Shown here: piece after piece, positions 9,889 to 43,421 of the stretch
Layout: each line of letters opens with the position of its first letter
Numbering within the stretch: the stretch's first letter is position 1
Notes under the pieces: model-generated
Databases searched by the model: none
The model's input: only the letters and a program-made list of their open reading frames with translations
Told to the model about the DNA's origin: nothing
Made by a program: the position numbers and the translations under genes
IMG/VR virus record: IMGVR_UViG_2597489870_000006
Span: 1 to 57,127 of that record
DNA: 57,127 nucleotides
Reading direction: 5' to 3' (one strand)
From: a virus
Taxonomy: Duplodnaviria > Heunggongvirae > Uroviricota > Caudoviricetes

Positions 9889-10493
9889 TTAGTGCGTCAC
9901 TGGTGCTTCTGGGATGCCGTTTTCGTTTAGTTCGGCAATAAAGCTGTTGTGAAGATCGGCAAGCACTTCTCGCCCAAACGAAGTGAGTGTTCCCTGTTCG
10001 ACATCGAACATGTTGCTGTAAAAAATGATGGCATTCTTTGTTCCGACATCAACACCATATTTCTCGATCATTGCGCCCTCAATGTTGTTTGCCATAGCGA
10101 GGCGCTCTGCTACTGGATACAGCGGCATGGCGACGATGCCATTGGAATAAACAGAAACCACGGAATGATTGCCACTGTCATCAATAATGCTGACGGTGCC
10201 GTTTTCCTTTCTCATTTCATTGATTAATGCTGTTGCTATCAGCCAGCGCCACATAATCACGTGATGCTGTGATGTGTAATCGAAATATCCCTGGTTGCCG
10301 CCACTGGCAATAGCGAGATGTATAAACATGCCTTCATCTGGTTTATCGTCATAATCCCCGGCATCCAGACGATTTACGGCATCAATATATGAGACGGTCT
10401 CAACGCGTTCTGTCATGCCATTGTTGCTGCGGTGCATGATGTTTACGCCGTCAGGCGTTGCTTCTGCATGGAAGGTTAAGAAATTATTCATGT
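9889..10493 (-). CDS. hypothetical protein (201 aa from ATG at 10493)
   Basis: ATG at 10493 with SD gaggcg, overlapping the upstream stop; the track's longer ORF starts inside the upstream gene. Confidence 0.45.
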
Positions 10494-10705
10494 TTCGCCT
10501 CGCCTGAATGATTCTGTAACTCATATTTGCCCAACAATTCGTCCGCTTCCTGAATAGCTTCTGGTACGCCATTGAGCAGTGACATAACCGCGCCAATCAT
10601 TAACTTGTCTCTGTTGCTTGGGCTGGCCCCTTCAAGCCAGAACCCTAAAACAGTCTGAACCTGTTCGATGCGACATTGCGCTTCAATGAGCTGGATGTTG
10701 GTCAT
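10484..10705 (-). CDS. small hypothetical protein (73 aa)
   Basis: One of a chain of small overlapping genes typical of phage regulatory regions. Confidence 0.4.
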   Translation of the reverse strand: MTNIQLIEAQCRIEQVQTVLGFWLEGASPSNRDKLMIGAVMSLLNGVPEAIQEADELLGKYELQNHSGEAKHE

Positions 10706-10965
10706 TTCGCACTCTCCACATCGATTAAACTGATATCTATCAGGGAGGTAACTTTTTGTAGCCAGCTATTGATTACTGTCGCCTGTTCCCCTCCCACCGA
10801 TGGAAGAATCTCATTCATCACATGAACCAGACCTGTGCGCGCTCTGGTAAGCCGTTCAGTCGTGCGATCTGCAAGAGTGAATGTGTCTGGATATGGCTCT
10901 TCACGGCTCAGCAATGATTCAATTTCCAGCTCACACGGATGACGATAAATTAAGTTGATATTCAT
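10702..10965 (-). CDS. small hypothetical protein (87 aa)
   Basis: Start/stop overlap with neighbours. Confidence 0.4.
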   Translation of the reverse strand: MNINLIYRHPCELEIESLLSREEPYPDTFTLADRTTERLTRARTGLVHVMNEILPSVGGEQATVINSWLQKVTSLIDISLIDVESAK

Positions 10966-11156
10966 TTTTCACCCCCAAGAATTACCAGCTCTGCACGGGC
11001 ATCGTTAACCAAAGATGAGCACGCTTTAATCGCATCCACGACATCAGTAGCGTCCATTTCTTCAGCCGAAAGACTGACAGCAACCAGGACAGCCGCTGCT
11101 TGCTCGATTAATTGAAGTGCGGACGTAAGGCGAGGGGTATTAATTGAGTTATTCAT
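10962..11156 (-). CDS. small hypothetical protein (64 aa)
   Basis: Start/stop overlap with neighbours. Confidence 0.4.
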   Translation of the reverse strand: MNNSINTPRLTSALQLIEQAAAVLVAVSLSAEEMDATDVVDAIKACSSLVNDARAELVILGGEK

Positions 11157-11366
11157 TGGTTGCCCCCGTTTTTACTGGCATTTCGCCACCTTCCAGCAGG
11201 AAATGAACGTCACGAACGGCGAGATCCAATATCGCGAGTAACGCCTTCAGTCTTTCGTCTCGTGAGGGAGAGTTGCTCACCAGAATGTCGTTAATCACTT
11301 CTGTCAGTGTGATGATCTGGCTTGTGCGTTCGAGGGGATCCATATGCACATCGTAGTTTTTAATCA
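11149..11366 (-). CDS. small hypothetical protein (72 aa)
   Basis: Internal ATG at 11366 preceded by strong SD GGAGGTG; more plausible than the 355-aa read-through ORF. Confidence 0.4.
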
Positions 11367-11554
11367 TGTGCCACCTCCATGCGGATACGACCAGCAAAAA
11401 AGCAGATGTGATCGCGCACCAGAGAACGGCGAGCATCGCGTTCAGACTCGGCAGCAATATGATGAATTTTGGCGGTAATTGTCGGGCAATCGCGGCGAAC
11501 TGCGGCGATAATCCAGATAAATTGCGTTTTTTGGGTAGGGGTAGTAGCCAGCAT
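11360..11554 (-). CDS. small hypothetical protein (64 aa)
   Basis: ATG at 11554 preceded by SD GAAGGAGG 7 nt upstream; sits downstream of a structured leader. Confidence 0.45.
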   Translation of the reverse strand: MLATTPTQKTQFIWIIAAVRRDCPTITAKIHHIAAESERDARRSLVRDHICFFAGRIRMEVAHD

Positions 11555-11574
11555 GTGGCAGCCTCCTTCAGATA

Positions 11575-11650
11575 GCAGGTTACGCTACCACCGGAAACGC
11601 CAATTTCGCTGGTGGTAGCCCAGACAGGGTTGGCGTAACCGGCTCTGAAG
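11575..11650 (-). ncRNA. Structured RNA leader (nested inverted repeats pairing with the downstream SD)
   Basis: On the minus strand CTTCAGA...GGTTACGC...CTACCACC...GGTGGTAG...GCGTAACC...TCTGAAG-GAGG; the outer arm includes the SD of the 11554 gene. Confidence 0.35.
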
Positions 11651-12216
11651 GATACCGGCGCTTCCGAAGAAGCCCCCGCCTGAGCCACCATTGATTGACA
11701 AAGGCGCTGGATTATACACCAACGCCCAAAAAATGGGTGAGTCAGACCTACGACATAAAAAAAGACGCTCGGCGCGTCATATGTCGCCTTCAGAATTTTC
11801 AGGACGCCAATCCCGGCACCCGTTTTATGAGGTGCCTTATAACCATAAACCGTGTTGCCGCATAACGGCAAGCTCTTTTTTATGGACTCCGAAAACTCAC
11901 TATTGGAAGAACCAGAAGCACAGTACATCGCGCTCATTTCGTTAACGTCACGCGCGTGGACGAAGGTTTTTGTGGAGTCACTACACGAGCAGAGAAAGCC
12001 ATCTACGACCAGAAATTCTCTGGCATAGCCGCTGACCTTCTCAACGCTAACACCATCGACCGTAATTTCTGACATAGTTAAGGCATCCGCTCCTACCACC
12101 AGCAAATGATAAACTTTGCTTGTATCTGCTGTATTAATGTCTGACTTTGCTGTCATATTGCTGGATTTTGGCGACATACCAGCCAGTGAAAATATCTTCT
12201 TCTGGGCGGTTAGCAT
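11650..12216 (-). CDS. hypothetical protein, N-terminal part of the 355-aa track ORF (true 3' end uncertain)
   Basis: Protein-like N-terminal about 190 aa; the frame stays open through the structured region and the two SD-bearing small genes, so it is probably not one gene. Confidence 0.3.
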
Positions 12217-12392
12217 TTGTTAACCTCCGCGAACTCCTTCATGAAACGTGCCAGCGGTTGTACGCATGGCGATTGATACCCGTCGCGATAAAACGTCACT
12301 CGGTTGTGAGACACGCTTTCGACAGTAACGAGTGCTCCGTGGGCATCTTTGTAGCGTTTTTGAGGTTGTGGTGTTCCTGTCGGCTTAAACAT
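12210..12392 (-). CDS. small hypothetical protein (60 aa)
   Basis: ATG at 12392 overlapping the antirepressor stop. Confidence 0.35.
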   Translation of the reverse strand: MFKPTGTPQPQKRYKDAHGALVTVESVSHNRVTFYRDGYQSPCVQPLARFMKEFAEVNKC

Positions 12393-13218
12393 GGACCGCC
12401 TCCAGACGCTTGGCGAGCCAGCGTTGCGACAGGCGGGTGAGTTCTCCTTTGCGCTGCTCATATTCCATGCCCATATCAATTAACGTGATATTGGTGCTTT
12501 CGAGATATGAGAGGTGCTCAAGCTGTTCTGCGTTCATATGGTCGCGAGGTTCGCCAGAATAGCCATTTATCCGCGCCCACTGCTTAGCAGTTAGCCCACC
12601 AAGAACGATACGAGAAATCATATTGCTCTCGTTTGTGTAGTGGTGTTGCTGCGTCGTTTTCCCCTGCTCGGCACGGGCCATATTCAGCGCATCGCACATT
12701 GGCTTAAAGTTGTTTGCGGCACTAATACGGGCTTTTAGCTGGCGACGATAGCGGGCGGCGATTTCAGGCACGCTACGCTGTAATTCTTCCTCGCACTGGA
12801 TGAAATAACGACGGATAGCGCGACCCTGATCATTGCGTTCGATCATTGCCAGTTCTTTCGCCATTCCGACACTTAACAGATAGTCTTTGCCGGGTCTGCC
12901 AGAGTGCTTAATCTTGCTGTAAGCCGCGCCATTCGGGCTTTTCCCCAAATTTGGGGAAATTGTTTTATGGACTGAGTAATCGTGCCCAATGGTGAAGTCA
13001 TATTCAGAGATGCGATCAGTGATCCATGTAGAGAAGTCTTTTCCCACGCCCAACGCTTTGTGTAACGCTTTTGCGCTAACAATATTGGTTTCACGCCCAC
13101 CGATATGACCAGGAATAACCGGGACAATTGCGGCAAATTCATTACCGTTAATTGTGCCCAGAGAGGCGTTCAGATGAGGGGCAGCCTCAGAAATTAATCT
13201 GCTTTTTTCGATGTTCAT
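12385..13218 (-). CDS. phage antirepressor (AntA/KilAC-like, 277 aa)
   Basis: N-terminal SAKALHKALGVGKDFSTWITDRISEYDF resembles the AntA/Ant N-terminal domain. Confidence 0.6.
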   Translation of the reverse strand: MNIEKSRLISEAAPHLNASLGTINGNEFAAIVPVIPGHIGGRETNIVSAKALHKALGVGKDFSTWITDRISEYDFTIGHDYSVHKTISPNLGKSPNGAAYSKIKHSGRPGKDYLLSVGMAKELAMIERNDQGRAIRRYFIQCEEELQRSVPEIAARYRRQLKARISAANNFKPMCDALNMARAEQGKTTQQHHYTNESNMISRIVLGGLTAKQWARINGYSGEPRDHMNAEQLEHLSYLESTNITLIDMGMEYEQRKGELTRLSQRWLAKRLEAVHV

Positions 13219-13230
13219 TTTCAGTCTCCG

Positions 13231-13662
13231 TTAGGCGGCGTTAAACGCGTCCGGGTAGAGTTTCAGAATGTCGGCAATTTCCTGCTGAGAAAGTCCGTTG
13301 TGATCATTTATGTTCGCAAGATGGTTAACATGAGTGATCACTTTCAGAACATCACCACGGCAGGAGAAACGGTAGCGAAGGTGTGTTCCGATACCATCAG
13401 GATTCTTTTCGTCGATACGCTCCAGAGTGATTCCAAGCTGGCGTTCTAACTCTGTTGCATAGTTACGACCAGAAGACAGACGGCAGTAGCGAAGAATGTC
13501 ATTTTCTGTCCATCCCTCTATACCAGTACGCAGCATATAGACTCTGGCACGATGCTTTTTCGGTGTGCGCTTTGGTGCTTGAAGGGATTTTGTCAGGGGC
13601 GTAACATCAGATACGCGAATATCTGAATTAGCCGCCTGTAATGGGCGGTTTTTCTTTTCCAT
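13231..13662 (-). CDS. hypothetical protein (143 aa)
   Basis: ORF immediately downstream of alpA with ATGA-type overlap. Confidence 0.45.
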   Translation of the reverse strand: MEKKNRPLQAANSDIRVSDVTPLTKSLQAPKRTPKKHRARVYMLRTGIEGWTENDILRYCRLSSGRNYATELERQLGITLERIDEKNPDGIGTHLRYRFSCRGDVLKVITHVNHLANINDHNGLSQQEIADILKLYPDAFNAA

Positions 13663-13865
13663 CAGGCCACCTCGTCTCTAGATTCTAATATACACTTCTC
13701 AATCCATTCATCTATTTCAGACTCAACAAAAGCAATTGCCCGACTTCCAATTTTTACCTGTTTAGGGAACCTCCCCTGACTAATAAGACGATAAATCCAT
13801 GCTTTGCTATAACCAGTTCGCCTTTGAACTTCAGAGAGACGAATTAATGAATTGTAATTAGCCAT
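13662..13865 (-). CDS. alpA: AlpA-family transcriptional regulator / excision activator (67 aa)
   Basis: HTH pattern IRLSEVQRRTGYSKAWIYRLISQGRFPKQVKIGSRAIAFVESEIDEWI matches the AlpA family; sits next to int. Confidence 0.75.
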   Translation of the reverse strand: MANYNSLIRLSEVQRRTGYSKAWIYRLISQGRFPKQVKIGSRAIAFVESEIDEWIEKCILESRDEVA

Positions 13866-14124
13866 TTATTAATATCCTGTACTAATGACGCAATAACTCC
13901 CTCCTGCAACGAATGGCGAGAGTTTTATTTGCATCAAATGTCGAATACGCCAAAGACCACAATATGAAAAACATATTGCGGTCTTTTATAAAAGATAGTC
14001 AGATTGTTTTGGTTTGTTTGCTCCACAAGGGTAGAGCTACCCTGCATTTCGGCAGGATCACGCTATTAGGCGTGACATCCAGTAGTTTTAAAGAACGCCC
14101 TTTTTCAGGGCATGGTGGGCAGGC

Positions 14125-14430
14125 AAGAGAGCAATTGCGCTTTGTCAGCGCCGTAGATTCATATTTGAATCATTGTATGTTTCCCGATAGAAATCTATCG
14201 GTCACTGCGGGACGAACCATCCCGCCCACATCAATGTTAAAGAGCAATTGCGCTTTGTCAGCGATCCGCAGCCTCATGGATGAATCATTACATGCATTGT
14301 AAAGGTGCATGTATCCCTATTCTTTCCTGCATCAGGAAAGCACCAAAGGCTGTTAAAGAGCATCCAGCTTTTCAGCTGCGTAGAAGATTCCATCTTCGTT
14401 GTTAAAAGAGCGATTGCCCTTCTCCAGGGC
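14125..14430. repeat. Four copies of a GTTAAAGAGC-plus-hairpin repeat in the int-alpA intergenic region
   Basis: AGAGCAATTGCGCTTTGTCAGCG twice exactly (14127-14155, 14229-14262) plus two degenerate copies near 14353 and 14397; irregular spacing. Confidence 0.5.
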
Positions 14431-14516
14431 TAACTGTTAAATAGTAATCCTCTGTGAGTTTTTATCAATCTACTCCCCTATACTTTAGTAAACCTCTGTA
14501 TACTTGTCCAGTTGTT

Positions 14517-15731
14517 TCATGCGTGTTTTTCAAACACCATATGCACCACATTTCCGCCATGCTCGAGAGAATCCATATAGTCGGCATACCATTGAAGCAT
14601 CTCCCGCCTTCCATCCAGATATTGCGCATGGTTGTATGTGCCACGAATTGAGTTCTTATCAACGTGAGCGAGCTGCGTTTCTATCCACGCGGTGTTATAG
14701 CCCTGCTCATGCAAAATCGTACTCATAGTGTGCCGGAACCCATGACCAGTTACACGTCCAGCGTAGCCAATGCGCTTAAACACTTGGTTTATGCTGGCCT
14801 CACTCATTGTTTTCCTTGGATCATTGCGCCCGGGAAACATAAGAGGGTAATTGCCTGTTATTTCTCTAATCTTCCCAATAAGCGAAAGAGCCTGCTCAGA
14901 CAATGGCACAATATGAGGCCGCCGCATTTTCATACGTGAAGCGGGTATCTCCCAGAGAGCCTTGTTGAAATCAATTTCATCCCATAATGCGCCACGTAGT
15001 TCGCCAGTCCGCAAGCCTGTGATAATCAGTAGACGAGCCGCCATAACAACCAATGCGCTTCCTGAGTAACTGGACAATGCCTTGAAAAAATCAGGTAATT
15101 CTTTGGCTGTAAGGAAAGGGTAATGATTAGATTCATGGCCTTGCATCGCGCTAGTAAGGTCTGGTGCAGGGTTATACTCTGCGCGACCAGTGACTATTGC
15201 ATAGCGGAAAACTTCCCCGCACCGCTGCCTCACTTTTTTGGCTTTTTCTGTAGCACCGCGCCCCTCGATGCGCCGCAGCACATTCAGAAGTTCAAGTGGT
15301 TTGATTTCGGCGATTGGTTTTTTGCCAATGTAAGGGAACACATCTTTGTTGAAGGCTTCGAGGATGTCTGAAGCATAACCAGCAGACCATTTTTTTAATT
15401 TGCTGCTGTGCCACTCAAGGGCAATATCTTTGAAGGTGTTGTTTAACTGCGTTTCCCGGGCAATCTTTTCCTCTCGTTTCGCTTCCATCGGATCGATACC
15501 ACCAGCGATACCTCTTTTCGCATCTTCACGTTTTGCCCGAGCATCGGCTAGAGTAACCTCAGGATACACACCTAGTGCCAATAGCTTCTCTTTACCAGCC
15601 ACACGATATTTAAGTCGCCAGTATTTACCTCCATTAGGTTTTACCAAGAGATACAAACCGCCACCATCGGCCAGCTTGTAAGCCTTCTCTTTTGGCTTGG
15701 CTGTGTCTATTTGACGGGCATTGAGTTTCAC
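14517..15731 (-). CDS. int: tyrosine integrase, P4 family (404 aa)
   Basis: P4-type integrase N-terminus MKLNARQIDTAKPKEKAYKLADGGGLYLLVKP and C-terminal R...HGFRHT...Y catalytic region; GTG start with SD GGAGG; next to att core. Confidence 0.9.
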   Translation of the reverse strand: MKLNARQIDTAKPKEKAYKLADGGGLYLLVKPNGGKYWRLKYRVAGKEKLLALGVYPEVTLADARAKREDAKRGIAGGIDPMEAKREEKIARETQLNNTFKDIALEWHSSKLKKWSAGYASDILEAFNKDVFPYIGKKPIAEIKPLELLNVLRRIEGRGATEKAKKVRQRCGEVFRYAIVTGRAEYNPAPDLTSAMQGHESNHYPFLTAKELPDFFKALSSYSGSALVVMAARLLIITGLRTGELRGALWDEIDFNKALWEIPASRMKMRRPHIVPLSEQALSLIGKIREITGNYPLMFPGRNDPRKTMSEASINQVFKRIGYAGRVTGHGFRHTMSTILHEQGYNTAWIETQLAHVDKNSIRGTYNHAQYLDGRREMLQWYADYMDSLEHGGNVVHMVFEKHA

Positions 15732-16431: not shown

Positions 16432-17184
16432 TCAGATTCCCTGGTGAGTAAGAATTTTACTTTCTGAACTCCTCTGAGAGTATTGACTTGGAGAAACACC
16501 AAAATAACGTCTAAATACATAAGTAAAGTATGAGACACTGGCATAACCACAGACCTTAGCTACTTTACTAATAGGATAACAACGAGTGCTGAGTAAATAT
16601 TCAGCCATTTGCATCCTCTCATCAAGTATGATCTTACTGAATGATACCCCCTCTTCTTTCAATTTCCTCTTTAGTAAACTTTCGCTGAGATATAATCTTG
16701 ATGATATATCCTTAAGACGCCATGGTGCAGATAAATCCGTATGAATAATCGTTTTAACTTTAGCCCCTGTGCTTTTCAAACATCCAAACAGAAATACTCC
16801 AAATTGTTTTTCAGAAGAAAATGCAGAGAGACATGTAAAAGCAATAGACTCATCAAAAATTTCTATGTATTCAGCACAGTGATTAGCCCAACTAATTAAT
16901 CCTTTAATTAAACTGAAGTCAGCAAAGTTTATTTTTAAATAAGATGGATATTCCCTACAATCAGAAATATCCCTTAAGTTATTAGCTTTCAAATAGCGAC
17001 TAATAAACTCAGCGCCAAAATCCGCCACTATCACTCTTTCAGGATATGTCAGGAAAAAATCTCTAGAGCTAGAGTCGACAAGTACAGATGAACCTCTCTC
17101 CAGAAACACAATCTCTTTTCCTAAATAAACATCAAAGGACTCCAAAATCAATATAACTGAACATGTAGTTGCCATATCATCCAC
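16432..17184 (-). CDS. AraC-family transcriptional regulator (250 aa, AT-rich)
   Basis: C-terminal AraC-type HTH region ...ISKVAKVCGYASVSYFTYVFRRYFGVSPSQY; low GC, flanked by AT-rich DNA. Confidence 0.75.
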   Translation of the reverse strand: MDDMATTCSVILILESFDVYLGKEIVFLERGSSVLVDSSSRDFFLTYPERVIVADFGAEFISRYLKANNLRDISDCREYPSYLKINFADFSLIKGLISWANHCAEYIEIFDESIAFTCLSAFSSEKQFGVFLFGCLKSTGAKVKTIIHTDLSAPWRLKDISSRLYLSESLLKRKLKEEGVSFSKIILDERMQMAEYLLSTRCYPISKVAKVCGYASVSYFTYVFRRYFGVSPSQYSQRSSESKILTHQGI

Positions 17185-17904: not shown

Positions 17905-18774
<870 letters not shown>

Positions 18775-18831: not shown

Positions 18832-19392
18832 TCATTTATCTCCGACCGGAAACTTCTTATACAGTGTCGATATACCAACATCATAGATGATCGCCACCTT
18901 CTGGCGAGGAACGCCTGATGCAATTAATCGCCCGGCCTGCGCCCATTGTTCTGGTGTAAGTTTGGGACGACGTCCACCAATTCGTCCCTGTGCGCGAGCA
19001 GCTTCCAGTCCAGCTTTTGTTCGTTCAACAATCAGTTCTCGTTCCATTTCAGCCAGGGCACCCATCACATGAAAGAAAAAACGCCCCATCGGTGTGCTGG
19101 TATCAATAGCATCCGTCAGGCTGCGAAAATTAACGCCACGTTCGCGCAACTCCTCAACCAGAATGACCAGATGCCGCATACTACGCCCCAGCCGATCCAG
19201 CTTCCAGACAACCAGAGTGTCACCTGCCGATAATGTCCTGAGCAGTTTTTTCAGTCCCGGCCTTTCGGACTTTGTACCGCTTATCTTGTCTTCAAAAATC
19301 AGCTCGCATCCTGCACAGTTCAGTGCATTACGTTGCAAATCGGTGTTCTGGTCATTTGTTGACACGCGTACATAGCCAATAAGCATGATCAT
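18832..19392 (-). CDS. serine DNA invertase, Gin/Pin/Hin family (186 aa)
   Basis: N-terminal resolvase motif IGYVRVSTNDQNTDLQ with catalytic Ser, C-terminal HTH; next to the invertible segment. Confidence 0.9.
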   Translation of the reverse strand: MIMLIGYVRVSTNDQNTDLQRNALNCAGCELIFEDKISGTKSERPGLKKLLRTLSAGDTLVVWKLDRLGRSMRHLVILVEELRERGVNFRSLTDAIDTSTPMGRFFFHVMGALAEMERELIVERTKAGLEAARAQGRIGGRRPKLTPEQWAQAGRLIASGVPRQKVAIIYDVGISTLYKKFPVGDK

Positions 19393-19413
19393 CCCCCTGA
19401 ATAAAAACCGGAG

Positions 19414-19806
19414 ATGATGCCAGTTAGCTGTTACCTCTGCATTTTCTTAAACGTTGGTTTGGGAGAAGCGGCTAAAAGGAATGTAGGGACAGGGGCGAAT
19501 CAGATACCTGATATGGGTAGCTTCACGCTTTCTGTTTCAGGTACTGGATATCAAAAATTACCATCAGGTTTTATTCTTCAGTGGGGCTCAATCGGCGCAC
19601 CAGGCATTGCACAGGATGTAGTAACCCATTTCCCGATTGCATTTCCAAACAGATGTCTGCGTGTTTTGGTCTCACAAGACTACACACCAGATAGCGGGGC
19701 TGTTGGTTATATTGCCTGTGCAGGTTTTAGTCCCGACCCGGTTAAATTTATATCCAGAGCCAGTACTCCTGGCCTCGGCGCTTCATTTTTAGCGTTAGGC
19801 TGTTAA
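19414..19806 (+). CDS. alternative tail-fibre C-terminal segment, promoterless, inside the invertible segment
   Basis: Reading frame passes through the crossover site with the same ...LGLGE... junction as the expressed tail-fibre gene. Confidence 0.6.
19444..19467. promoter_or_regulatory. gix/hix-like inversion crossover site (left)
   Basis: ttcttaaacgttggtttgggagaa is an inverted copy of the 21367-21390 site (14 contiguous identical bases). Confidence 0.7.
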
Positions 19807-19827
19807 TTTAGCTATATGGAGTGAAAA

Positions 19828-20268
19828 ATGAATTACATATATTCCGCGACTACAAACTCTTTCTATCCGCTGGAGATGAAAGAGGATTACACTCAAGCTG
19901 ACTCATGGCCAGATGATGCTGTTGAAGTTGATGAGCAAGTGTATATTGAGTTTTCCGGATTACCGCCGAAAGGAAAAATCCGTATCGCTGGAGAAAATGG
20001 TTTTCCTGCATGGTCTGAAATTCCACCACCAACACATGAGGAACAGATTGCTGCAGCCGAACAGGAAAAGCAGCAACTGATTAATCAGGCCAACGATTAT
20101 ATGAACAGTAAACAATGGCCTGGTAAAGCGGCTATTGGTCGTCTGAAAGGTGAGGAACTGGCGCAATATAATTTGTGGCTGGATTATCTGGACGCACTGG
20201 AACTGGTCGATACTTCCGGTGCGCCAGATATTGAATGGCCTACGCCTCCGGCAGTTCAGGCCAGATGA
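19828..20268 (+). CDS. tail fibre assembly protein (alternative copy, 146 aa)
   Basis: Tfa-like sequence following the alternative fibre segment. Confidence 0.7.
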   Translation: MNYIYSATTNSFYPLEMKEDYTQADSWPDDAVEVDEQVYIEFSGLPPKGKIRIAGENGFPAWSEIPPPTHEEQIAAAEQEKQQLINQANDYMNSKQWPGKAAIGRLKGEELAQYNLWLDYLDALELVDTSGAPDIEWPTPPAVQAR

Positions 20269-20845
20269 CATCCGGCGCGGTGCTGGTATCTGTTGCCGTC
20301 ACCGCGTCAATGTAATCCAGCGCAGCGTTAAGTCGGGCGGTTTCTGCCTGCGTCAGATTCCGTCCGGCCTGCAATTTCAGCTGAATCAGACTAATGGAAG
20401 CCATTGCAGTATCAATCAGTGACTGACGCTGTGCTTCTGCCGCGCCTACTGCGGCGCTATGCTGTGCCACAGTATCTGTTACCCATTTCTCACCATCCCA
20501 TTCATCGTATGGCGTTAACGGGGCGATAGTGGTTGTATTTTCAGGATAATCACCCGGAGCTGTGATTTCTTTCGATTCTCCTGTTTCGGTGCTATAGATG
20601 ATTTCACCGCGATGGTCTGGCACATACTCCCATGAGTTTAAATCTGCCGAACGGCAGATTGCATAACCAGCCTTATGTGTGCCAGGAGCATCTAAACAGG
20701 AATATGCAGGGATACCGACACCCACAGCAAGATATTCAGTTGATGCAGAAATATACTCCCGTGTCTCACTGTCATAGTTATAAACGGTAATCTCTCCTGC
20801 CTTTGTGGCAATAAATTTACTATTCAAGATGGCGTTATACATCAT
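20240..20845 (-). CDS. tail fibre assembly protein (expressed orientation, 201 aa)
   Basis: Tfa-like C-terminus, directly downstream of the tail fibre gene. Confidence 0.7.
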
Positions 20846-24266: not shown

Positions 24267-25345
24267 CAGAACGGGTCCTCCTGTACTCTGGCTTTTTTCT
24301 TTTTCCGCGCGCCGGGGGCTTCGGGTTCAGGCAGATAAGCATCAGGTGGGCCGACACGGATTTCCGTCAGGGTGCCATTCTGGTCCTGAGTAAACGTGAC
24401 TTCCGAGACAAGCAGTTCGGTATTGTCGAAACCACAGACCGGATCGAAGACAATCACCCGCTGGTTGGGCTGCCACAGCGTACCGTTACCCTGTCGCCAG
24501 CCCTGCACCACATAGGTGGTTTCATCCGTCCGCGCCGCCCGTTGTCGGGCTTCAAAGTCAGCACGCGCAATACAGCCTGCCCCCGTAGCCTGCCCTGTCT
24601 GCCTGATATACATCGGACGGTAACGGGCAATAAATGCGTCCTCTGTGCGGGCCCGCAGCGCAGTTGTGGTGGCCTCACCGAAATCATCGTCGTTTCCGGC
24701 ACGCTGCCCCGCCACCTGGTAAACAGAAAACCGCTCCCGGATACTCTTCTCCGTATCGCAGGAAAGGATGTTTTCCCCGAGTACCAGCGCGGTATGTGCC
24801 CGCGTTGAGCCAATACCGCCAATCACCAGCCTGCCGTGCGGGTCGTCATAAGCCAGCGCCTGCTGCTGACCGAGTATTTTGTTAATCACCTCGATCACCG
24901 TTTCACCGTGATCAGGCTGGACATCAGGAATAACACCCGACGGCGCACCGCTGTTCACCACCTCAATGCCGAAGGGCGCAGCAAGCGCCTGCGCAATCTG
25001 TACCAGTGATCGTCCGTTAAACTGTGTCGGTTCAGCTGCACAATCAATCAGGTCAGCGGTCAGACTGCGTCCGGCAATACCGGTGCTGACCGAACGGGCA
25101 TCGTAACGAACGAGCGTCGCCTCCACCCAGCCGGTGATCACCAGCTCATCACCAATCAGCACCTCCACTTTTGAACCGTTTTTAATGCGCGGCTGAAGCG
25201 TGGTGATACCCTCATCACCCGGCCACTGGCGGGTGATCTCCACACTGAAATCCCGCGCCAGTCGTTCAACACCGGCACCGATGCGCACCGATGTCCAGCC
25301 ATTCCACTCCCGGCCATTTACCCGTAGCGTGACATTGTCGTTCAT
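24266..25345 (-). CDS. tail protein, Mu gpP-like (359 aa)
   Basis: Position after DNA circulation protein, size and composition. Confidence 0.65.
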   Translation of the reverse strand: MNDNVTLRVNGREWNGWTSVRIGAGVERLARDFSVEITRQWPGDEGITTLQPRIKNGSKVEVLIGDELVITGWVEATLVRYDARSVSTGIAGRSLTADLIDCAAEPTQFNGRSLVQIAQALAAPFGIEVVNSGAPSGVIPDVQPDHGETVIEVINKILGQQQALAYDDPHGRLVIGGIGSTRAHTALVLGENILSCDTEKSIRERFSVYQVAGQRAGNDDDFGEATTTALRARTEDAFIARYRPMYIRQTGQATGAGCIARADFEARQRAARTDETTYVVQGWRQGNGTLWQPNQRVIVFDPVCGFDNTELLVSEVTFTQDQNGTLTEIRVGPPDAYLPEPEAPGARKKKKARVQEDPF

Positions 25346-26676
25346 TGCGCTGGCACCTTCAGAGGGATCACCGGCACAAAGCCGGGATGCGTAATGGCAT
25401 TACGCCGGATAATGTCCGCATCACGCGCCGCGTTATCAAACCAGGTCGCCGCCAGCACCAGCGCGGGTAAAACCTCATCCGGTGTGCGCTGAATGATCCG
25501 TGCAGACTGTTCAAGGCGCGTGTTGATATCCGCATTCAGATCTGCTTTCACCCGGCGCAGCGCCAGAAACAGCGCATCACTGGTTGTACGGGACAACTCC
25601 TTATCAATTGCCATATTCAGTGTGTCGCGAATGTCGGTCAGTTCTTCCCACGTTGGCAGGTCAACCGTGTTTTTCACCGCCGGTGCATTGTTCAGCACCG
25701 GATGCGTGACGGCAGGCCAGCCGGAGCTCTGCGCGGGTGTTGTTGCCTGCCCCACTGCGGAATTCTGCATCACCGCAGAAGTTGTTGGCGCAGGCAATCG
25801 GGTAACGGCATACGCCGCTTCGCTGATTGCAGTCGTACGAAGGGTGCTGGCAACCATGTTACGCTGCTGCGTCGCTGTGGCGGTGGTTTTACTGTCCGTT
25901 TTCCAGACGCCGCGCGGTTGCAAATCGCTGCCGAGGCTGACACCAGAAAGCGTTTTGATCATGGTGACCAGGTCGCTGGCGTTACCATAAAGGCGTTTCC
26001 CGGTACGCCACATTTTCTGCACCTGCTCAACGAAATTTTTTCCTGACGATGGCGGCGGCATAAGTACCGAGATATCCCCCTGCAACAGCCTGGCGGCATC
26101 CGATACAGCAGAATCCACCACTTTCATCGCATCAGAAACATACCCAAGCATTGTGCTGGCATTACCGATAACATCGTTCTGCACAAAATCCGCCACGCCA
26201 TCGATACTGAAACCGCTGAAGCTGTCACTGATGCAGTCATCCAGTGCAGAACAGGATGACATCAGCGTCTGCGCCGTCGCCACGCCTGATGTGGGGTAAG
26301 AGAGATCTCCCGCTTCGACAAACTTCAGGTCAAAGCGGACAATACGCCCTTCACTCTTCGATGTGCTGACCCGAACTTCCCCGTCAACACAGACTTTCAA
26401 CTCACCGTATGTCGGGTGGACAAGCGTGCCGGGACCGGGTTTATTCAGCGCGTCAATCAGGCGATCGCGCTGGTCAAAGCAGTCATCTCCCACCACATAA
26501 GCCGTGATGGACGGGCGGAAAGTGACTTTTCCCAGATCTTCGGTATAGGGTTTGTCGCGGTTCGGATATTCGTGTGTTTCCACACGACGGCCGGTTCCCG
26601 CACTTTCTTCTTCAACCTTAAACGGCACACCTCGAAATGACGCATCCTGAAGCCTGTCTTTCCACGTCATATACAC
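25342..26676 (-). CDS. DNA circulation protein, Mu gpN-like (444 aa)
   Basis: Position after tape measure, size typical of Mu N. Confidence 0.65.
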   Translation of the reverse strand: MYMTWKDRLQDASFRGVPFKVEEESAGTGRRVETHEYPNRDKPYTEDLGKVTFRPSITAYVVGDDCFDQRDRLIDALNKPGPGTLVHPTYGELKVCVDGEVRVSTSKSEGRIVRFDLKFVEAGDLSYPTSGVATAQTLMSSCSALDDCISDSFSGFSIDGVADFVQNDVIGNASTMLGYVSDAMKVVDSAVSDAARLLQGDISVLMPPPSSGKNFVEQVQKMWRTGKRLYGNASDLVTMIKTLSGVSLGSDLQPRGVWKTDSKTTATATQQRNMVASTLRTTAISEAAYAVTRLPAPTTSAVMQNSAVGQATTPAQSSGWPAVTHPVLNNAPAVKNTVDLPTWEELTDIRDTLNMAIDKELSRTTSDALFLALRRVKADLNADINTRLEQSARIIQRTPDEVLPALVLAATWFDNAARDADIIRRNAITHPGFVPVIPLKVPAQ

Positions 26677-26680
26677 TCCG

Positions 26681-26711
26681 AAAATAAAAAAGCCACCTAT
26701 TAGAAGGTGGC
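26681..26711 (-). terminator. Rho-independent terminator downstream of the tail-cluster moron
   Basis: 7-bp stem gccacct/aggtggc followed on the minus strand by ttttttatttt. Confidence 0.6.
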
Positions 26712-26731
26712 CTTGTAATGAATTTTATTAA

Positions 26732-27262
26732 TTAGCGAGTCAGAAACAACGAATCTTTATACTTTTGCTGTTGTTCATTTAAATACTTAGCTGTTTCATC
26801 GCTGGCAAATGGAAATATTACAGTATTTTTAGGCATAGTAATTTCTTTTTTGTCCAGCGTCAGAGTAAACATAGGAACATACTGAGCAGAGTAACGCACC
26901 GCAGAAACGAGCTCTAGTTTAGACTCTTCAATAACACTTAAATTATCCAAGCTAACTTTCTCTTCATCTTTTTTCTTTGACGCATTTAAAGTTTTTATTA
27001 CTTTATTTAATTTCTCCTGAAAATCCTCCTTAAAGTTTTCAGGATTGCCGTCGACAACAAGAATCTGTTCACCCTGATTATCTGGAAAAATAATCTTTGC
27101 ACTTATCAATTTATTTTCTTTATAAACATCACCAAGTTTTATGGCTCCTCCAGATAACTGAATAATATGTTCATCTTTAAAGGAGATGTTGCCAGAGATT
27201 ATGAGAGATGAAAAAATAGCCGCTGCTCCAAGAATTACACTTGCTGTGATATAGCCTTTCAT
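26732..27262 (-). CDS. AT-rich moron: protein with N-terminal signal peptide/anchor (176 aa), function unknown
   Basis: N-terminal hydrophobic MKGYITASVILGAAAIFSSLIISG; low GC; own terminator; inserted between tape measure and DNA circulation genes. Confidence 0.6.
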   Translation of the reverse strand: MKGYITASVILGAAAIFSSLIISGNISFKDEHIIQLSGGAIKLGDVYKENKLISAKIIFPDNQGEQILVVDGNPENFKEDFQEKLNKVIKTLNASKKKDEEKVSLDNLSVIEESKLELVSAVRYSAQYVPMFTLTLDKKEITMPKNTVIFPFASDETAKYLNEQQQKYKDSLFLTR

Positions 27263-27353
27263 TTTTCGCCTATTAACATTTTTCTAAATGTGCATTAATT
27301 CTATCACTCTATTTATGACTTACAACCAGCAATACATGTGAGGGGAATCCTGG

Positions 27354-29186
27354 CTACCAAAATCGGGTATAGCCAACATCGTGATTTATATCAATGCCAC
27401 TGGAGCGTGTTTCCGTAACCCGCATACCTGGTGGCATATTTATAAATGATACCTTGATCTCACCATCAACTTTTGGCGCGGTAGCTTTATTAATCATGAA
27501 GGGATTCGAGCCTGTGGCATCGGAGGCGTTGTTTGCCTGAGCCGGATCCACCGCCGGATAAGGCGTGTATCCCCGTGCCGGTATTCCCGTCCCATAAGCA
27601 TCATAAGCACCCGCGCCCCACTGCGCCGAGTTAATGGTATCGACCGTGTCACCGGAACTGTCGGTAAACCATTCAATAATCGGCTTCAGCTTATCCCACA
27701 TATCCTGAAACCACTTAACAACCGGTCCCCAGTTATTGATCACCATCCCCAGCGGCGACCAGGCAAAAACTTTCTTAAGGAGTTCCCAGCCAGCCTCAAA
27801 ATAAGGACCAATGGTTTCCCAGAGCTTCTTGAAATAAGGTCCGACAACATCCCAGTTAGTGATAATTAATCCCGCAGCCAGGGCTATCGCCGTCGCAATC
27901 ATGCCAATCGGCGTCATCGACATGATCCTGCTGACAATGCTGATGGCACTGCCCACGCCCATCAATCCCAGTTTCAGAATCGCAAGACCGGCAGCAAGCC
28001 CGACGACGCCGCGAATAACCCGGGGATTTTCATCCGCAAACTTCGTGAATTTCTCCCCCAACTCCCCCAGCCACTGCGTGATGTTCTTAGCGTCACCAGA
28101 AAATGCGCCGCCAATAGCCGCAAGGCCGTTAGTTGCGGTCCCCGTCATTGCCTCCCACAGGTTGGACAGCGTACCAAGCTGAGCCTGAACACGTTTATTC
28201 AGGCTGGCCTGTTTATTCATCTTCTGCTGGATCTGATCGTAGCCATCCTTTCCTTTATCGATTAGTGCATTGACCACCTGAAGGGTTTCGGCATCATCAC
28301 CAAATATTGCCTTAAGTACACCGGTTCGCTTAACGTCGGTCAGTTTTCGCAGCTTTGCCAGTTGCCTGAACATGTTATCAAGACCGCCAAAACTCCCTTT
28401 GCCATCAGTAAAATCGAGCTGTACCCCGAGTTTCTGGCGGGCCATGATTTTATTGACGTCCCTGATTTTCTTAACGCTTAATCCGGACTGGATAACTTTT
28501 CGCAGGGCATTACCTGCCGACTCCCCGTTCATCCCCATCTGATCCATCATGACACTGATGGGGGCAAGACTCTGTGCAGCCTGAAGACCGTCCTTATTCA
28601 CCATCTTCAGAACAGAGCTGGTTTTAGTGAAGAATGACAGCATGTTGGTATCGTCCACGCCCAGATAAAACGCCTTCTGAATTGTGTCGAACAGCCCCAT
28701 CATGTCTTCTGAGGCCGTTCCGGTAGCATCCTGCATCTTTGCGGCAAACTCAGCAGCCGCTTCCGGTGTTTTTTTCAGTTGTACCGCAAGATAAGCTGTC
28801 GCTTTACCCACACCACCAAGAATGTTTTCTGCCGGGATCCCCTGACGCACCAGCATCTGCATCATGTTCTGGAAATCAGCCGTTGTACCGGGTAGCTGGT
28901 TACCCAGGCCAATAGCCAGTTTATTGATGTCCTGAAAGCTCTTTCCAACCTCGCCGTTCGCATCCATCATGGCGACTTTCAGCCCGGTGGCGGCGTTTTC
29001 CTGATCAGCATAAGATTTCAGGGAAAGCGTCAGACCCGCTGCCAGTCCGCCACCAAGCGCCAGCCCACCCTGTGACGCTTCTTCCGCCTGGCGTTTAAAT
29101 CCCCGGATTTTCTTTTGCATTTTCGACAGCGCGGGAGAAAGCCTGTCGACACCGGTGATCAACGCCTTAAGCTCAAATTCAGCCAT
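27354..29186 (-). CDS. tail tape measure protein (610 aa)
   Basis: Long helical protein with hydrophobic segments, located after tube and chaperone genes. Confidence 0.8.
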   Translation of the reverse strand: MAEFELKALITGVDRLSPALSKMQKKIRGFKRQAEEASQGGLALGGGLAAGLTLSLKSYADQENAATGLKVAMMDANGEVGKSFQDINKLAIGLGNQLPGTTADFQNMMQMLVRQGIPAENILGGVGKATAYLAVQLKKTPEAAAEFAAKMQDATGTASEDMMGLFDTIQKAFYLGVDDTNMLSFFTKTSSVLKMVNKDGLQAAQSLAPISVMMDQMGMNGESAGNALRKVIQSGLSVKKIRDVNKIMARQKLGVQLDFTDGKGSFGGLDNMFRQLAKLRKLTDVKRTGVLKAIFGDDAETLQVVNALIDKGKDGYDQIQQKMNKQASLNKRVQAQLGTLSNLWEAMTGTATNGLAAIGGAFSGDAKNITQWLGELGEKFTKFADENPRVIRGVVGLAAGLAILKLGLMGVGSAISIVSRIMSMTPIGMIATAIALAAGLIITNWDVVGPYFKKLWETIGPYFEAGWELLKKVFAWSPLGMVINNWGPVVKWFQDMWDKLKPIIEWFTDSSGDTVDTINSAQWGAGAYDAYGTGIPARGYTPYPAVDPAQANNASDATGSNPFMINKATAPKVDGEIKVSFINMPPGMRVTETRSSGIDINHDVGYTRFW

Positions 29187-41069: not shown

Positions 41070-41396
41070 TTACTCCTTAGAGCCACCAAACTTATTACCG
41101 ATTACTCTCATTGCAGCCCCACGAATAGCATCGACCCCGATTAGCCCAACGCCGCCACCAATGGCAACAGAAAGAGATTTAGGCCATCCGACATACTCAA
41201 GAGCGGATGCAAAAGTCAGAGTCAGAGCACCACAGAGCAAAATCTCGAGCGTTTTTCGTTTCCAGCCCCCACCACCGCCAAAATATGCAATGCGCAAGCC
41301 AGCCATAACAATCGACATAATCACTGCGCCCAGCGGTGTGTCTCCACGCCACCAGCTCTGGACCAACTCCAACCAGGTATTTGGGTTATGAGGCAT
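41070..41396 (-). CDS. holin (108 aa)
   Basis: Three hydrophobic segments, immediately upstream of endolysin. Confidence 0.7.
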   Translation of the reverse strand: MPHNPNTWLELVQSWWRGDTPLGAVIMSIVMAGLRIAYFGGGGGWKRKTLEILLCGALTLTFASALEYVGWPKSLSVAIGGGVGLIGVDAIRGAAMRVIGNKFGGSKE

Positions 41397-41692: not shown

Positions 41693-43024
41693 ATGTTAGA
41701 TACACTATCTTTCACTGAACGTGACGAGTTCCAACGCAGAAGCATCGCTGAAAATATCATCAAGTTGCTAAAACCAGAGGCAGACATTTCACCACTGGTA
41801 ATAGACGGCGCATGGGGAACAGGGAAAACAGAATTTAGTATCAAACTGAAAAATCTCATTATTGAGCAAGAAACTGAATCTAAAGTTGTTTATATTGATG
41901 CCTTTAAAGGGGATCATGCAGAATCTCCATTACTTCTCATAACCTCTGCAATTGCCAGCATTTTACCTGAGGAAGAAAAACAACACTTCATTAAGAGATC
42001 TCTTCCTGCAATTCGCTTTGGTTTAAAAACGGTACTAAAAGCTGGTGCAGGTTGGTTTTTACGACAGGAGGCTAGTGAAGTTTCCGAAGAATTCCAAGAT
42101 GCGATGAAGAAAGCAAGCAATGCAGCAATAGATGGGACTATTGAAAATTTGCTTGAAGACCATATGGAATCAGAGAAAAACATAAATTCACTTAAATCTT
42201 GCATCGAAAGCATTTCAGAAAGTCAAAAGATAGTAATTATAATTGATGAATTAGACCGATGTAAGCCGAGTTTTTCAACAAATGTCATTGAAACAATAAA
42301 ACACATTTTTGACATCAATAATGTCTTTTTTATTTTAGTTACAAACACAGAACAATTAAAAGCATCGATAAATCATATTTATGGTTATAGTATTAACTCA
42401 CAAAAGTATCTTGACAAGTTTATAAAATATACCATCACGCTTCCAGACACATGTTTAATAAATGGTCACGTCGTATGTAAAACATCTGTTATATATTGGA
42501 ATTACCTTGTAGACAAGACAAAATCATTAAATGAAATTAATAGTTTATCTGGTAGATTTATCCGTGATTTAATTCAACGAACCAACTTATCCTTACGTGA
42601 AACACAAACTTTTTCACGCAATCTTAACATTTTTCAACTATTAAACGACGATGAGTACAAAAGCAGTGATCCTTTAATAAATAAGATCTTTGTCGTAGCT
42701 GTCTTCATACATTGCTTTGGTGACAAGGAAAAACTAAAACAAGAAATTACCGCAGAATCTATATCTCATTTAGCAGATCTGCTTAACATAAAAGAAATAC
42801 CTTATTCTTATGAGAGAAGATCGCAAATTCCTGAAATATCTATTGTATTCTTCGGAATAATTAAAGACAGTATTACTCTTAATGAGCGATTTGCCCCTAA
42901 AAGTGATGAAGAACTTAAAAAATTCACCAATGTTTATACTGATTATGAACACCTAAATTTTTGGAGTACTACACCCAGAGAGTTATTGATAAAATATATT
43001 AATCAAATGTCATTCATCCAGTAA
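41693..43024 (+). CDS. KAP-family P-loop NTPase (443 aa), AT-rich, opposite strand to flanking phage genes
   Basis: Walker A VIDGAWGTGKTEFS and KAP-type Walker B VIIIDELDRCKP; low GC; convergent with Q. Confidence 0.8.
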   Translation: MLDTLSFTERDEFQRRSIAENIIKLLKPEADISPLVIDGAWGTGKTEFSIKLKNLIIEQETESKVVYIDAFKGDHAESPLLLITSAIASILPEEEKQHFIKRSLPAIRFGLKTVLKAGAGWFLRQEASEVSEEFQDAMKKASNAAIDGTIENLLEDHMESEKNINSLKSCIESISESQKIVIIIDELDRCKPSFSTNVIETIKHIFDINNVFFILVTNTEQLKASINHIYGYSINSQKYLDKFIKYTITLPDTCLINGHVVCKTSVIYWNYLVDKTKSLNEINSLSGRFIRDLIQRTNLSLRETQTFSRNLNIFQLLNDDEYKSSDPLINKIFVVAVFIHCFGDKEKLKQEITAESISHLADLLNIKEIPYSYERRSQIPEISIVFFGIIKDSITLNERFAPKSDEELKKFTNVYTDYEHLNFWSTTPRELLIKYINQMSFIQ

Positions 43025-43054
43025 ATAATACGCCCCTGCATGGGGCGTATTATT
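43024..43054. terminator. Bidirectional terminator hairpin between the KAP NTPase gene and Q
   Basis: 13-bp inverted repeat AATAATACGCCCC/GGGGCGTATTATT with 5-nt loop, overlapping both stop codons. Confidence 0.6.
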
Positions 43055-43421
43055 AAACGTCCAAATCTAATGTTAGATCTAGCATGGAAAGGCAGCCATC
43101 AATAAATCCTTCGGCTAGCTGTATTTCTATACGTATCAATTTCTCATCCTTTCCACGCGCCTTTGCAATCTTACGCTTGGATATTCTGTATAAATAATGT
43201 GCCACAAGAAGCGAATGCTCATAAGGTCTTTTTTGCTTTAGACGAGCAAGACAACCTTCAATAATTAATGCATCACTATCCGAACAAGCCAAGCGTTTCT
43301 TGCTGGTATAGGGAAGAAGTCCCTTAAACCCAGCAGCTATAGGTGAATAGTCAACGCCTGAACTATCACTCGCCGCCCATGCTCCCCAACGCTCAAGAAC
43401 CATCTGAATATCACGCATCAA
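43053..43421 (-). CDS. late-gene antiterminator Q (small Q family, 122 aa)
   Basis: MMRDIQMVLERWGAWAA... resembles the small antitermination Q family; position before lysis module. Confidence 0.7.
   Translation of the reverse strand: MMRDIQMVLERWGAWAASDSSGVDYSPIAAGFKGLLPYTSKKRLACSDSDALIIEGCLARLKQKRPYEHSLLVAHYLYRISKRKIAKARGKDEKLIRIEIQLAEGFIDGCLSMLDLTLDLDV

Follow-up and report, generated by a model that had tools for sequence, protein, structure and literature searches.

The tail operon of phage HK97 carries a moron, gp15, beside the tape measure gene, and its inner-membrane product blocks DNA entry while leaving the receptor untouched, with a specificity that maps to the tail of the incoming phage (Cumby et al. 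2012; reviewed in PMC3594210). Other exclusion proteins, namely T4 Imm and Sp, T5 Llp, P22 SieA (PMC10883804), P1 Sim and TP-J34 Ltp (PMC3952083), face the periplasm or the cell surface and stop genome entry, and are encoded by temperate and virulent phages alike. Protective tail-operon morons are established through HK97 gp15, but characterised examples are scarce, above all among temperate phages with contractile tails, where there are almost none. In phage lambda, the accessory genes bor and lom lie in the late region and have envelope products, Bor being a lipoprotein and Lom an outer-membrane β-barrel. Here we analyse a 57,127-nucleotide (nt) stretch of DNA (positions 1 to 57,127 of IMG/VR virus record IMGVR_UViG_2597489870_000006; hereafter the window), in which a gene for a 176-residue protein (hereafter the cargo protein) is inserted in a Mu-type contractile tail cluster, with the tape measure gene on one side and the DNA-circulation gene on the other. 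This element is of a known kind, a tail-operon moron with an envelope product, and its protein family and fold are uncharacterised.

The cargo gene resembles HK97 gp15 in being an AT-rich, single-gene insertion beside the tape measure gene of a tail operon, in being dispensable for the virion and in having a small, predicted inner-membrane product, and a post-adsorption block of DNA entry, demonstrated for gp15, is proposed here. However, gp15 is YebO-like, whereas the cargo protein belongs to an unrelated family without a Pfam match and has a folded, predicted periplasmic domain of ~150 residues. Moreover, gp15 is encoded upstream of the tape measure gene of a siphovirus, whereas the cargo gene lies downstream of that gene in a contractile, Mu-type cluster. 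With bor and lom it shares the late-region location, the temperate phage and the envelope product, but the protein lacks cysteine and is predicted to be an inner-membrane-anchored α/β protein. With T4 Imm and Sp, T5 Llp, P22 SieA (PMC10883804), P1 Sim and TP-J34 Ltp (PMC3952083) it shares small size and membrane or lipid tethering, and its family likewise has temperate members and a lipoprotein relative in virulent phages; we detected no sequence or structural similarity of the cargo protein to any of these six proteins.

An accessory insertion in an SfV-like prophage

The window is a segment of the chromosome of enterotoxigenic Escherichia coli (ETEC) H10407, with 100% identity to NC_017633.1, and contains an SfV-like prophage integrated beside tRNA-Thr and proA. 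The DNA-circulation protein of the prophage is 96–97% identical to its counterparts in the Shigella serotype-converting phages SfV, SfII, SfI and SfIV, and the tail cluster is of the Mu-type contractile kind (sheath, tube, TAC, tape measure protein (TMP), DNA_circ_N and gp44/45/46/47/48-like genes). The features of the TMP/DNA-circulation junction, which we refer to as the slot, are as follows, in the direction of transcription.

27354..29186, minus strand: TMP gene, 610 aa, the upstream flank of the slot (annotation; PhageMin_Tail in homologous loci)
27263..27353, minus strand: AT-rich upstream intergenic region, 91 bp, 34% GC, within the inserted cassette and missing from empty sites
27325..27298, minus strand: sigma-70-like promoter candidate, TTGTAA-16-TGaTAGAAT with an extended −10 (consensus match); the −10 hexamer ends 35 nt before the ATG
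26732..27262, minus strand: cargo gene, 176 aa, ATG start (RefSeq hypothetical protein WP_000679479.1; phrog_5485, function unknown)
27197..27256, minus strand: N-terminal hydrophobic helix, codons 3–22, a predicted membrane anchor with the N terminus in (AlphaFold and alignment)
26750..27169, minus strand: predicted periplasmic α/β domain, codons 32–171 (AlphaFold)
26714..26689 (hairpin) and 26688..26681 (U-run), minus strand: intrinsic-terminator-like structure (folding)
26679..26676, minus strand: Shine–Dalgarno sequence GGAG of the DNA-circulation gene
25342..26670, minus strand: DNA circularization gene (Mu gp43/N-like), the downstream flank of the slot (annotation)

A first-pass annotation of the DNA had described positions 26681-27353 as a self-contained moron for a secreted protein. 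This interval is delimited correctly, extending from the T-run as far as the first base beyond the TMP stop codon, and the ORF call, the RefSeq annotation and the base composition all agree with the 176-residue, AT-rich reading frame reported between the two tail genes. The cargo gene has a GC content of 0.337 and a third-position value (GC3) of 0.288, as compared with 0.516–0.584 and 0.57–0.65 for six neighbouring tail genes, and the intergenic regions on both sides are also AT-rich (GC 0.34 and 0.31). The deviant composition typical of morons recurs in homologues elsewhere, whose GC content is 0.29–0.39 against 0.47–0.60 for their neighbours.

In an alignment to an empty-site relative, the flanks are 92–100% identical (~95% overall) up to ~27400 and again from ~26700, and the stretch between these points is wholly missing from the relative. 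The query was matched by 1,048 of the 5,426 complete E. coli genomes, 175 of which carry the complete cassette, and both inspected matches of the 1-98 type, from E. coli genomes, have an empty junction of 60 bp. The isolated phages SfIV and vB_EcoM-689R6 have a bare junction as well. The cassette is thus extra DNA between genes that are adjacent in relatives, and the gene is missing from isolated phages, while many prophages whose tail genes are nearly identical lack it too, in agreement with the earlier designation as a moron-type accessory insertion and not a tail part. Since the junction is bare in isolated phages, the cargo gene is not needed for building virions and is dispensable for them.

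The TMP gene differs from that of the empty-site relative mostly at its 3′ end, with 46 of 60 positions identical in the block 27446-27387 and 55–60 of 60 further upstream, and the last ~30 TMP codons are the most diverged part of the gene relative to empty E. coli loci. Between genera (homologous loci L007, L011 and L014), the C-terminal third of TMP is 45–60% identical, as compared with 81–98% for the N-terminal two thirds in L011 and L014. This pattern suggests that the recombination breakpoints for cassette exchange lie within the TMP 3′ end (27354-27446).

The cassette is common, being complete in 175 of the 5,426 complete E. coli genomes and present on at least 1,000 contigs. Among 34 E. 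coli copies we found nine synonymous and five conservative non-synonymous variants and no stop codon, and the ratio of non-synonymous to synonymous substitution rates (dN/dS) between two moderately diverged Leclercia-type copies is 0.078. The cargo reading frame is therefore a real gene under purifying selection. Word-indexed searches returned close relatives only (99% identical in E. coli, and 52–59% in Leclercia, Lelliottia and metagenomic sequences), whereas an exhaustive profile search defined a family of 79 clusters at 50% identity, comprising proteins of 166–200 residues with a shared layout. The cargo protein has no match in Pfam (E ≤ 10) or NCBIfam. A weak match to a PHROG 'endonuclease' (E 0.014) was dropped because the family lacks conserved acidic residues, and the other PHROG matches are to families of unknown function only. 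A search of the region against Rfam yielded only sub-threshold leader and attenuator matches, which are produced by the terminator. Five plasmid matches were found, all on non-mobilizable records; the one examined is 35 kb long, resembles a prophage and carries an IS26 insertion, and no context of conjugation or entry exclusion was seen.

The junction is a hotspot for envelope-directed cargo

We surveyed the TMP/DNA-circulation junction in 214 IMG/VR loci (119 distinct), recruited with four diverged DNA-circulation proteins, together with sister E. coli loci. The survey comprises the best-scoring loci for each query, and IMG/VR is redundant. To call envelope targeting we used the N-terminal sequence together with a heuristic based on hydropathy. 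In 34 distinct sequences the junction is empty; otherwise it holds one of 11 unrelated single genes, listed here with the number of distinct sequences and the predicted envelope signal.

Cargo-protein family (WP_000679479.1 type): 32, N-terminal membrane helix
162-aa protein: 15, signal peptide
170-aa protein: 14, signal peptide
bPH_2 protein: 7, two membrane helices
153-aa protein: 4, signal peptide
tRNA_anti-like OB-fold protein, opposite strand: 3, membrane anchor
145-aa protein, opposite strand: 2, two membrane helices
bPH_1 protein: 2, no envelope signal
DUF7424 protein: 1, lipobox
121-aa protein: 1, signal peptide
HIRAN protein: 1, no envelope signal

Nine of the 11 cargoes are envelope-directed, by a signal peptide, membrane helices or a lipobox. 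Membrane and exported proteins make up ~35–40% of the background by our estimate, and against this assumed share the binomial probability of nine in 11 is ~0.002–0.006. The junction is thus a hotspot with at least 11 alternative single-gene cassettes and a bias towards envelope-directed products.

One of the alternative cargoes matches phrog_8545, 'superinfection exclusion Sie-like', with an E value of 1.5e-49. This protein, which has a transmembrane helix followed by a tRNA_anti-like OB fold (PF12869), occupies the same junction in sister prophages and resembles the cargo protein in being a single-pass protein with a small extracytoplasmic domain, but the two proteins are unrelated in sequence and fold, its gene runs on the opposite strand, and its label is an annotation. 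The isolated Edwardsiella phage EPP-1 carries a 125-aa gene in the TMP/DNA-circulation junction (L103 2563-2940), so that plaque-forming phages, and not prophages alone, can carry a junction gene; its size equals that of the bPH_1 cargo. We found no description of the junction as a cargo hotspot in the open-access full-text literature. In the SfIV genome paper, the moron reported lies elsewhere, between Q and the lysis genes.

Predicted architecture: a membrane anchor and a periplasmic α/β domain

The N terminus of the cargo protein consists of one lysine, ~20 uncharged hydrophobic residues (a stretch of ~20–25) and then net-acidic residues. An initial AlphaFold run with 12 close sequences was poor (pLDDT 64) and was replaced by a run with a 61-sequence alignment, which gave a pLDDT of 89.9 and a pTM of 0.75. 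In this model, helix 3–22 is followed by a short linker, a four-stranded sheet, a long helix, a β-hairpin and a C-terminal helix (β32–36, β39–44, β46–59, β66–72, α74–93, β114–126, β132–143 and α149–171). The hydrophobic stretch and the modelled helix bear out the earlier call of an N-terminal signal peptide or anchor and an envelope-directed product. A structure search against the PDB revealed no fold relative of the domain.

The helix carries small residues conserved across the family (S8, G12, S/A14, S18/S19 and S23), and its identity across the family in the 61-sequence alignment is 0.44, as compared with 0.37 for the folded domain. A soluble, Sec-secreted periplasmic protein is expected to have a short h-region, a cleavable site of the A-x-A type and a signal sequence that is not conserved. 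There is no A-x-A site here, and IIS↓G and ISG↓N both satisfy the −3/−1 rule. Because the helix is at least as conserved as the folded domain, we favour a retained, N-in membrane anchor, which would place the domain in the periplasm, over a signal peptide that is cleaved off, and the label 'secreted' in the first-pass annotation is probably wrong. The lipoprotein prediction suggested there as a check has a clear outcome: none of the 176 residues is a cysteine, which rules out a lipobox and hence a lipoprotein of the Bor type.

Within the folded domain, the same alignment reveals a membrane-proximal family motif, [NH][IV][IL]x[LT]xxGxVxLGx[VI]YxE, and N93 and Y124 are also kept. E49 is the sole acidic residue conserved across the family, and no constellation of residues looks catalytic.

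The family extends beyond one kind of tail operon

Copies with 52–59% identity in Leclercia, Lelliottia and Citrobacter, and with ~41% identity in Edwardsiella, occupy the same slot wherever the context is visible, and a scan of genome contigs with a close alignment added only one Citrobacter and one Edwardsiella locus. Homologues with 30–33% identity also lie in the TMP/DNA-circulation slot, and a member was found in Mangrovibacter. By contrast, a 29%-identical homologue resides in a different contractile tail operon, of the E217/PhiTE type, downstream of the tape measure and hub genes and next to DUF551 and KilA-N cargo. In all phage contexts the family gene is 12–22 GC points below its neighbours.

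Homologues with 23% identity in marine Pseudomonas are cargo of small integrative islands, in the company of further membrane or exported proteins and of a resolvase, an Mrr-type nuclease or a DUF5906 primase. The presence of the family in these non-phage islands indicates that it is not a tail component. Directly before each of two island homologues (L015 3434-6534; L018 4935-6531) lies a gene whose product is exported or membrane-bound: one island encodes a 180-aa protein with a signal peptide, the other a 66-aa protein with two helices. These pairs may be two-gene envelope modules; the 180-aa neighbour was ruled out as a paralogue of the homologue that it precedes. A tblastn search of isolated phage genomes with the cargo protein and with a Pseudomonas homologue gave no match.

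The sole significant structural match is the BFVD model of a 'Lipoprotein' from Pseudomonas phage ventosus (Foldseek E 9.4e-7; TM 0.55/0.65). Its gene (MG018930 51995-52429) encodes a protein that starts MKRLLFLGITALLLTGC, which contains a lipobox (LLTGC), and hhalign aligns this protein to the family with an E value of 9.3e-5, from the residue immediately after the cysteine. The ventosus lipoprotein is thus a probable remote homologue of the cargo family, and membrane tethering appears to be a conserved architecture, through a helix here and through lipid in the remote homologue. This relative is present in four virulent Pseudomonas myoviruses with genomes of 93–101 kb, and the ventosus gene lies in the early region, amid replication and nucleotide-metabolism genes and away from the structural genes. 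Ventosus is related to Otagovirus phages (PMC9796965).

Transcription signals of the slot

The upstream intergenic region that the first-pass annotation had attributed to the gene is confirmed, as 91 bp that belong to the cassette. Downstream, a hairpin of ten pairs and a 6-nt loop, followed by TTTATTTT, has a folding energy of −15.1 kcal/mol, and none of 200 shuffled sequences folds as well; the structure ends 9 nt before the GGAG Shine–Dalgarno sequence of the DNA-circulation gene. A moron commonly brings its own terminator, and a strong hairpin with a U-run is indeed found here, although it is a feature of the junction as a whole. An empty junction has a GC-rich hairpin and U-run at the equivalent place, and five other forward-strand junction types each fold into a hairpin a few bases before the DNA-circulation GGAG, with stems of unrelated sequence (the comparison covered L003 4075-4110 and the junctions of L002, L006, L007, L011, L014 and L023).

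The hairpin is therefore a conserved feature of the operon junction and not the terminator of the cassette. It looks like an operon-internal terminator between the tape measure and baseplate genes, which would need Q antitermination to pass; the prophage encodes a Q-family antiterminator (43053-43421), and late transcription presumably reads through by means of it. The hairpin would insulate the baseplate genes from transcription begun in the slot. The claim of a Rho-independent terminator before the next tail gene thus holds for the structure itself and fails for its assignment to the cassette. The description of a self-contained unit needs the same division: there is an insertion with its own upstream region, but the hairpin belongs to the junction and the promoter is a consensus match only.

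Superinfection exclusion as the favoured function

Our preferred reading, which we put forward tentatively and at somewhat less than even confidence, is that the cargo gene is a superinfection-exclusion moron that would act at the genome-entry step. In the mechanism that we infer, from topology and anchor retention to lysogen expression, the exclusion role and the blocked step, the product would insert in the inner membrane through its uncleaved N-terminal helix, with the N terminus in, and would display the non-enzymatic α/β domain of ~150 residues at the periplasmic face. It would be expressed in the lysogen from its own weak promoter and, late in infection, by Q-antiterminated read-through of the tail operon. 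Incoming contractile-tailed phages would be stopped after adsorption, as their complex of tail tip and tape measure passes through the periplasm and makes an opening in the inner membrane for the DNA. Membrane-bound defences that act on tape-measure-assisted injection are known in other systems (PMC13190303).

The first-pass annotation had proposed a lysogenic-conversion envelope protein and offered exclusion, serum resistance or adhesion as functions. The envelope-directed, accessory nature of the cargo agrees with the general proposal, and among the functions offered we favour exclusion, for three reasons: a cargo of the same slot matches the 'superinfection exclusion Sie-like' PHROG; the probable remote homologue is an early lipoprotein of Pseudomonas phages that, being virulent, form no lysogen that it could convert; and members of the family lie next to the tape measure gene in two myovirus tail modules that are unrelated to each other.

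Several observations weigh against exclusion. A full-text literature search for the accession WP_000679479.1 returned nothing, and we found no similarity in sequence or fold to any characterised exclusion protein. In PADLOC-DB 2.0, the cargo protein has no match at E ≤ 10, and neither a distant homologue nor three other slot cargoes have one at E ≤ 0.01. The 'Sie-like' label of phrog_8545 is an annotation, and a shared slot is no proof of a shared function. A gene with 34% GC is a likely target of H-NS and might be silent in the lysogen, with late expression only. The 4-kb region contains five sigma-70-like matches against a shuffle expectation of 4.3 ± 2.3, and a comparable promoter match is present in two of the four homologous loci scanned. 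Cleavage of the N terminus as a signal peptide, at either of the two candidate sites, is possible. Finally, the cargo protein is 53–55% identical whether the accompanying TMP is 36% or 76% identical; its divergence does not track that of TMP, and there is thus no sign of co-evolution between the two.

Two alternatives, which we consider about equally improbable, survive best. The first is a lysogenic-conversion factor with another benefit to the host, such as serum resistance, adhesion, envelope stress tolerance, or immunity to toxins that act in the periplasm, such as colicins or type VI secretion system (T6SS) effectors. It would have the same moron anatomy and envelope targeting, the host H10407 is a pathogen, the cassette occurs in human and animal isolates, and the other slot cargoes are mostly uncharacterised exported proteins for which any envelope function is conceivable. 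However, a protein without cysteine or lipobox and with a mixed α/β fold, not a β-barrel, is neither Bor-like nor Lom-like, and its predicted inner-membrane anchor would keep it distant from the cell surface, where serum-resistance and adhesion factors act. Furthermore, solved T6SS and colicin immunity proteins give no fold match, and a host virulence trait would be pointless among the early genes of virulent phages, where the probable remote homologue is encoded. For these reasons a host benefit other than exclusion seems unlikely.

The second is a role confined to the late lytic cycle and absent from the lysogen, either a T5 Llp-like prevention of injections that progeny would waste on debris and lysing cells or a modulation of the envelope for lysis or tail-tip passage. 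The orientation of the cargo gene with the tail operon, the embedding of the family in the tail operons of two unrelated modules, the weak evidence for a promoter and a backbone hairpin that a Q-modified polymerase can read through are all in keeping with such a role, and the virulent-phage homologue suggests activity during infection. Nevertheless, most relatives and the isolated phages form virions without the gene, and the family is also found in integrative islands that have no late operon. The prevention of reinjection is, in addition, mechanistically the same as superinfection exclusion, so that this alternative, itself of low probability, overlaps with the favoured explanation. A tail structural or assembly component specific to a tape measure variant (an extra chaperone, baseplate or ejection protein) is highly improbable: although the position between the tape measure and DNA-circulation genes is kept across genera, the N-terminal membrane helix removes the protein from the cytoplasm, the compartment of tail assembly; isolated phages and relatives with ~95%-identical flanks have no gene at the site; the site can be filled by unrelated cargoes, including one encoded on the opposite strand; and homologues lie in non-phage islands.

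If exclusion proves correct, the cargo proteins would add a new family to the few defences known at genome entry, with a bearing on host-range failures of phage therapy in E. coli, Shigella, Edwardsiella and their relatives, and the junction would offer an easily located place in genomes in which to look for more entry-blocking genes. A broader and more doubtful proposal is that the family represents a new structural family of membrane-tethered periplasmic 'injection blockers' distributed over three kinds of element (temperate myoviruses, virulent Pseudomonas myoviruses and Pseudomonas islands), with the junction as a dedicated, terminator-insulated slot for envelope exclusion genes. In that case, the junction would be the tail-operon counterpart of the P2/P4 defence hotspots, specialised for envelope defence.

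Other accessory regions of the prophage and window

A gene for a KAP-family NTPase of 443 aa (41693-43024, plus strand) lies between the Q antiterminator gene (43053-43421) and the holin gene (41070-41396), on the opposite strand to these, and is a second candidate accessory or defence gene of the prophage; its position is the classical lambdoid moron site, which is occupied by stx in Stx phages. At 18832-20845, the site-specific recombinase gene pinE adjoins oppositely oriented genes for a tail-fibre C-terminal part and tail-fibre assembly, and this region is an invertible host-range switch of the e14/Mu Gin type. Beyond pinE, at the tail-fibre end, an AraC-family regulator (16432-17175, minus strand) and a LEM-3-like GIY-YIG nuclease-domain protein (18001-18774, plus strand) are encoded. 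The same pair adjoins pinE in CP088862.1 and appears to be conserved end-of-prophage cargo.

A second integrative element (7528-15731) directly adjoins the prophage and has its own tyrosine integrase (14517-15731). It also carries genes for a DUF5906 primase-like protein (7528-9876), an Ash-family protein and an AntA/AntB antirepressor, a layout of the P4-type satellite kind, and the two elements may represent a helper and its satellite in tandem. The far end of the window holds the remnant of a further, P22-like phage, a pseudogene interrupted by an internal stop (~4270-5613) that RefSeq annotates as 'phage DNA ejection protein' (record positions 347458-348801).

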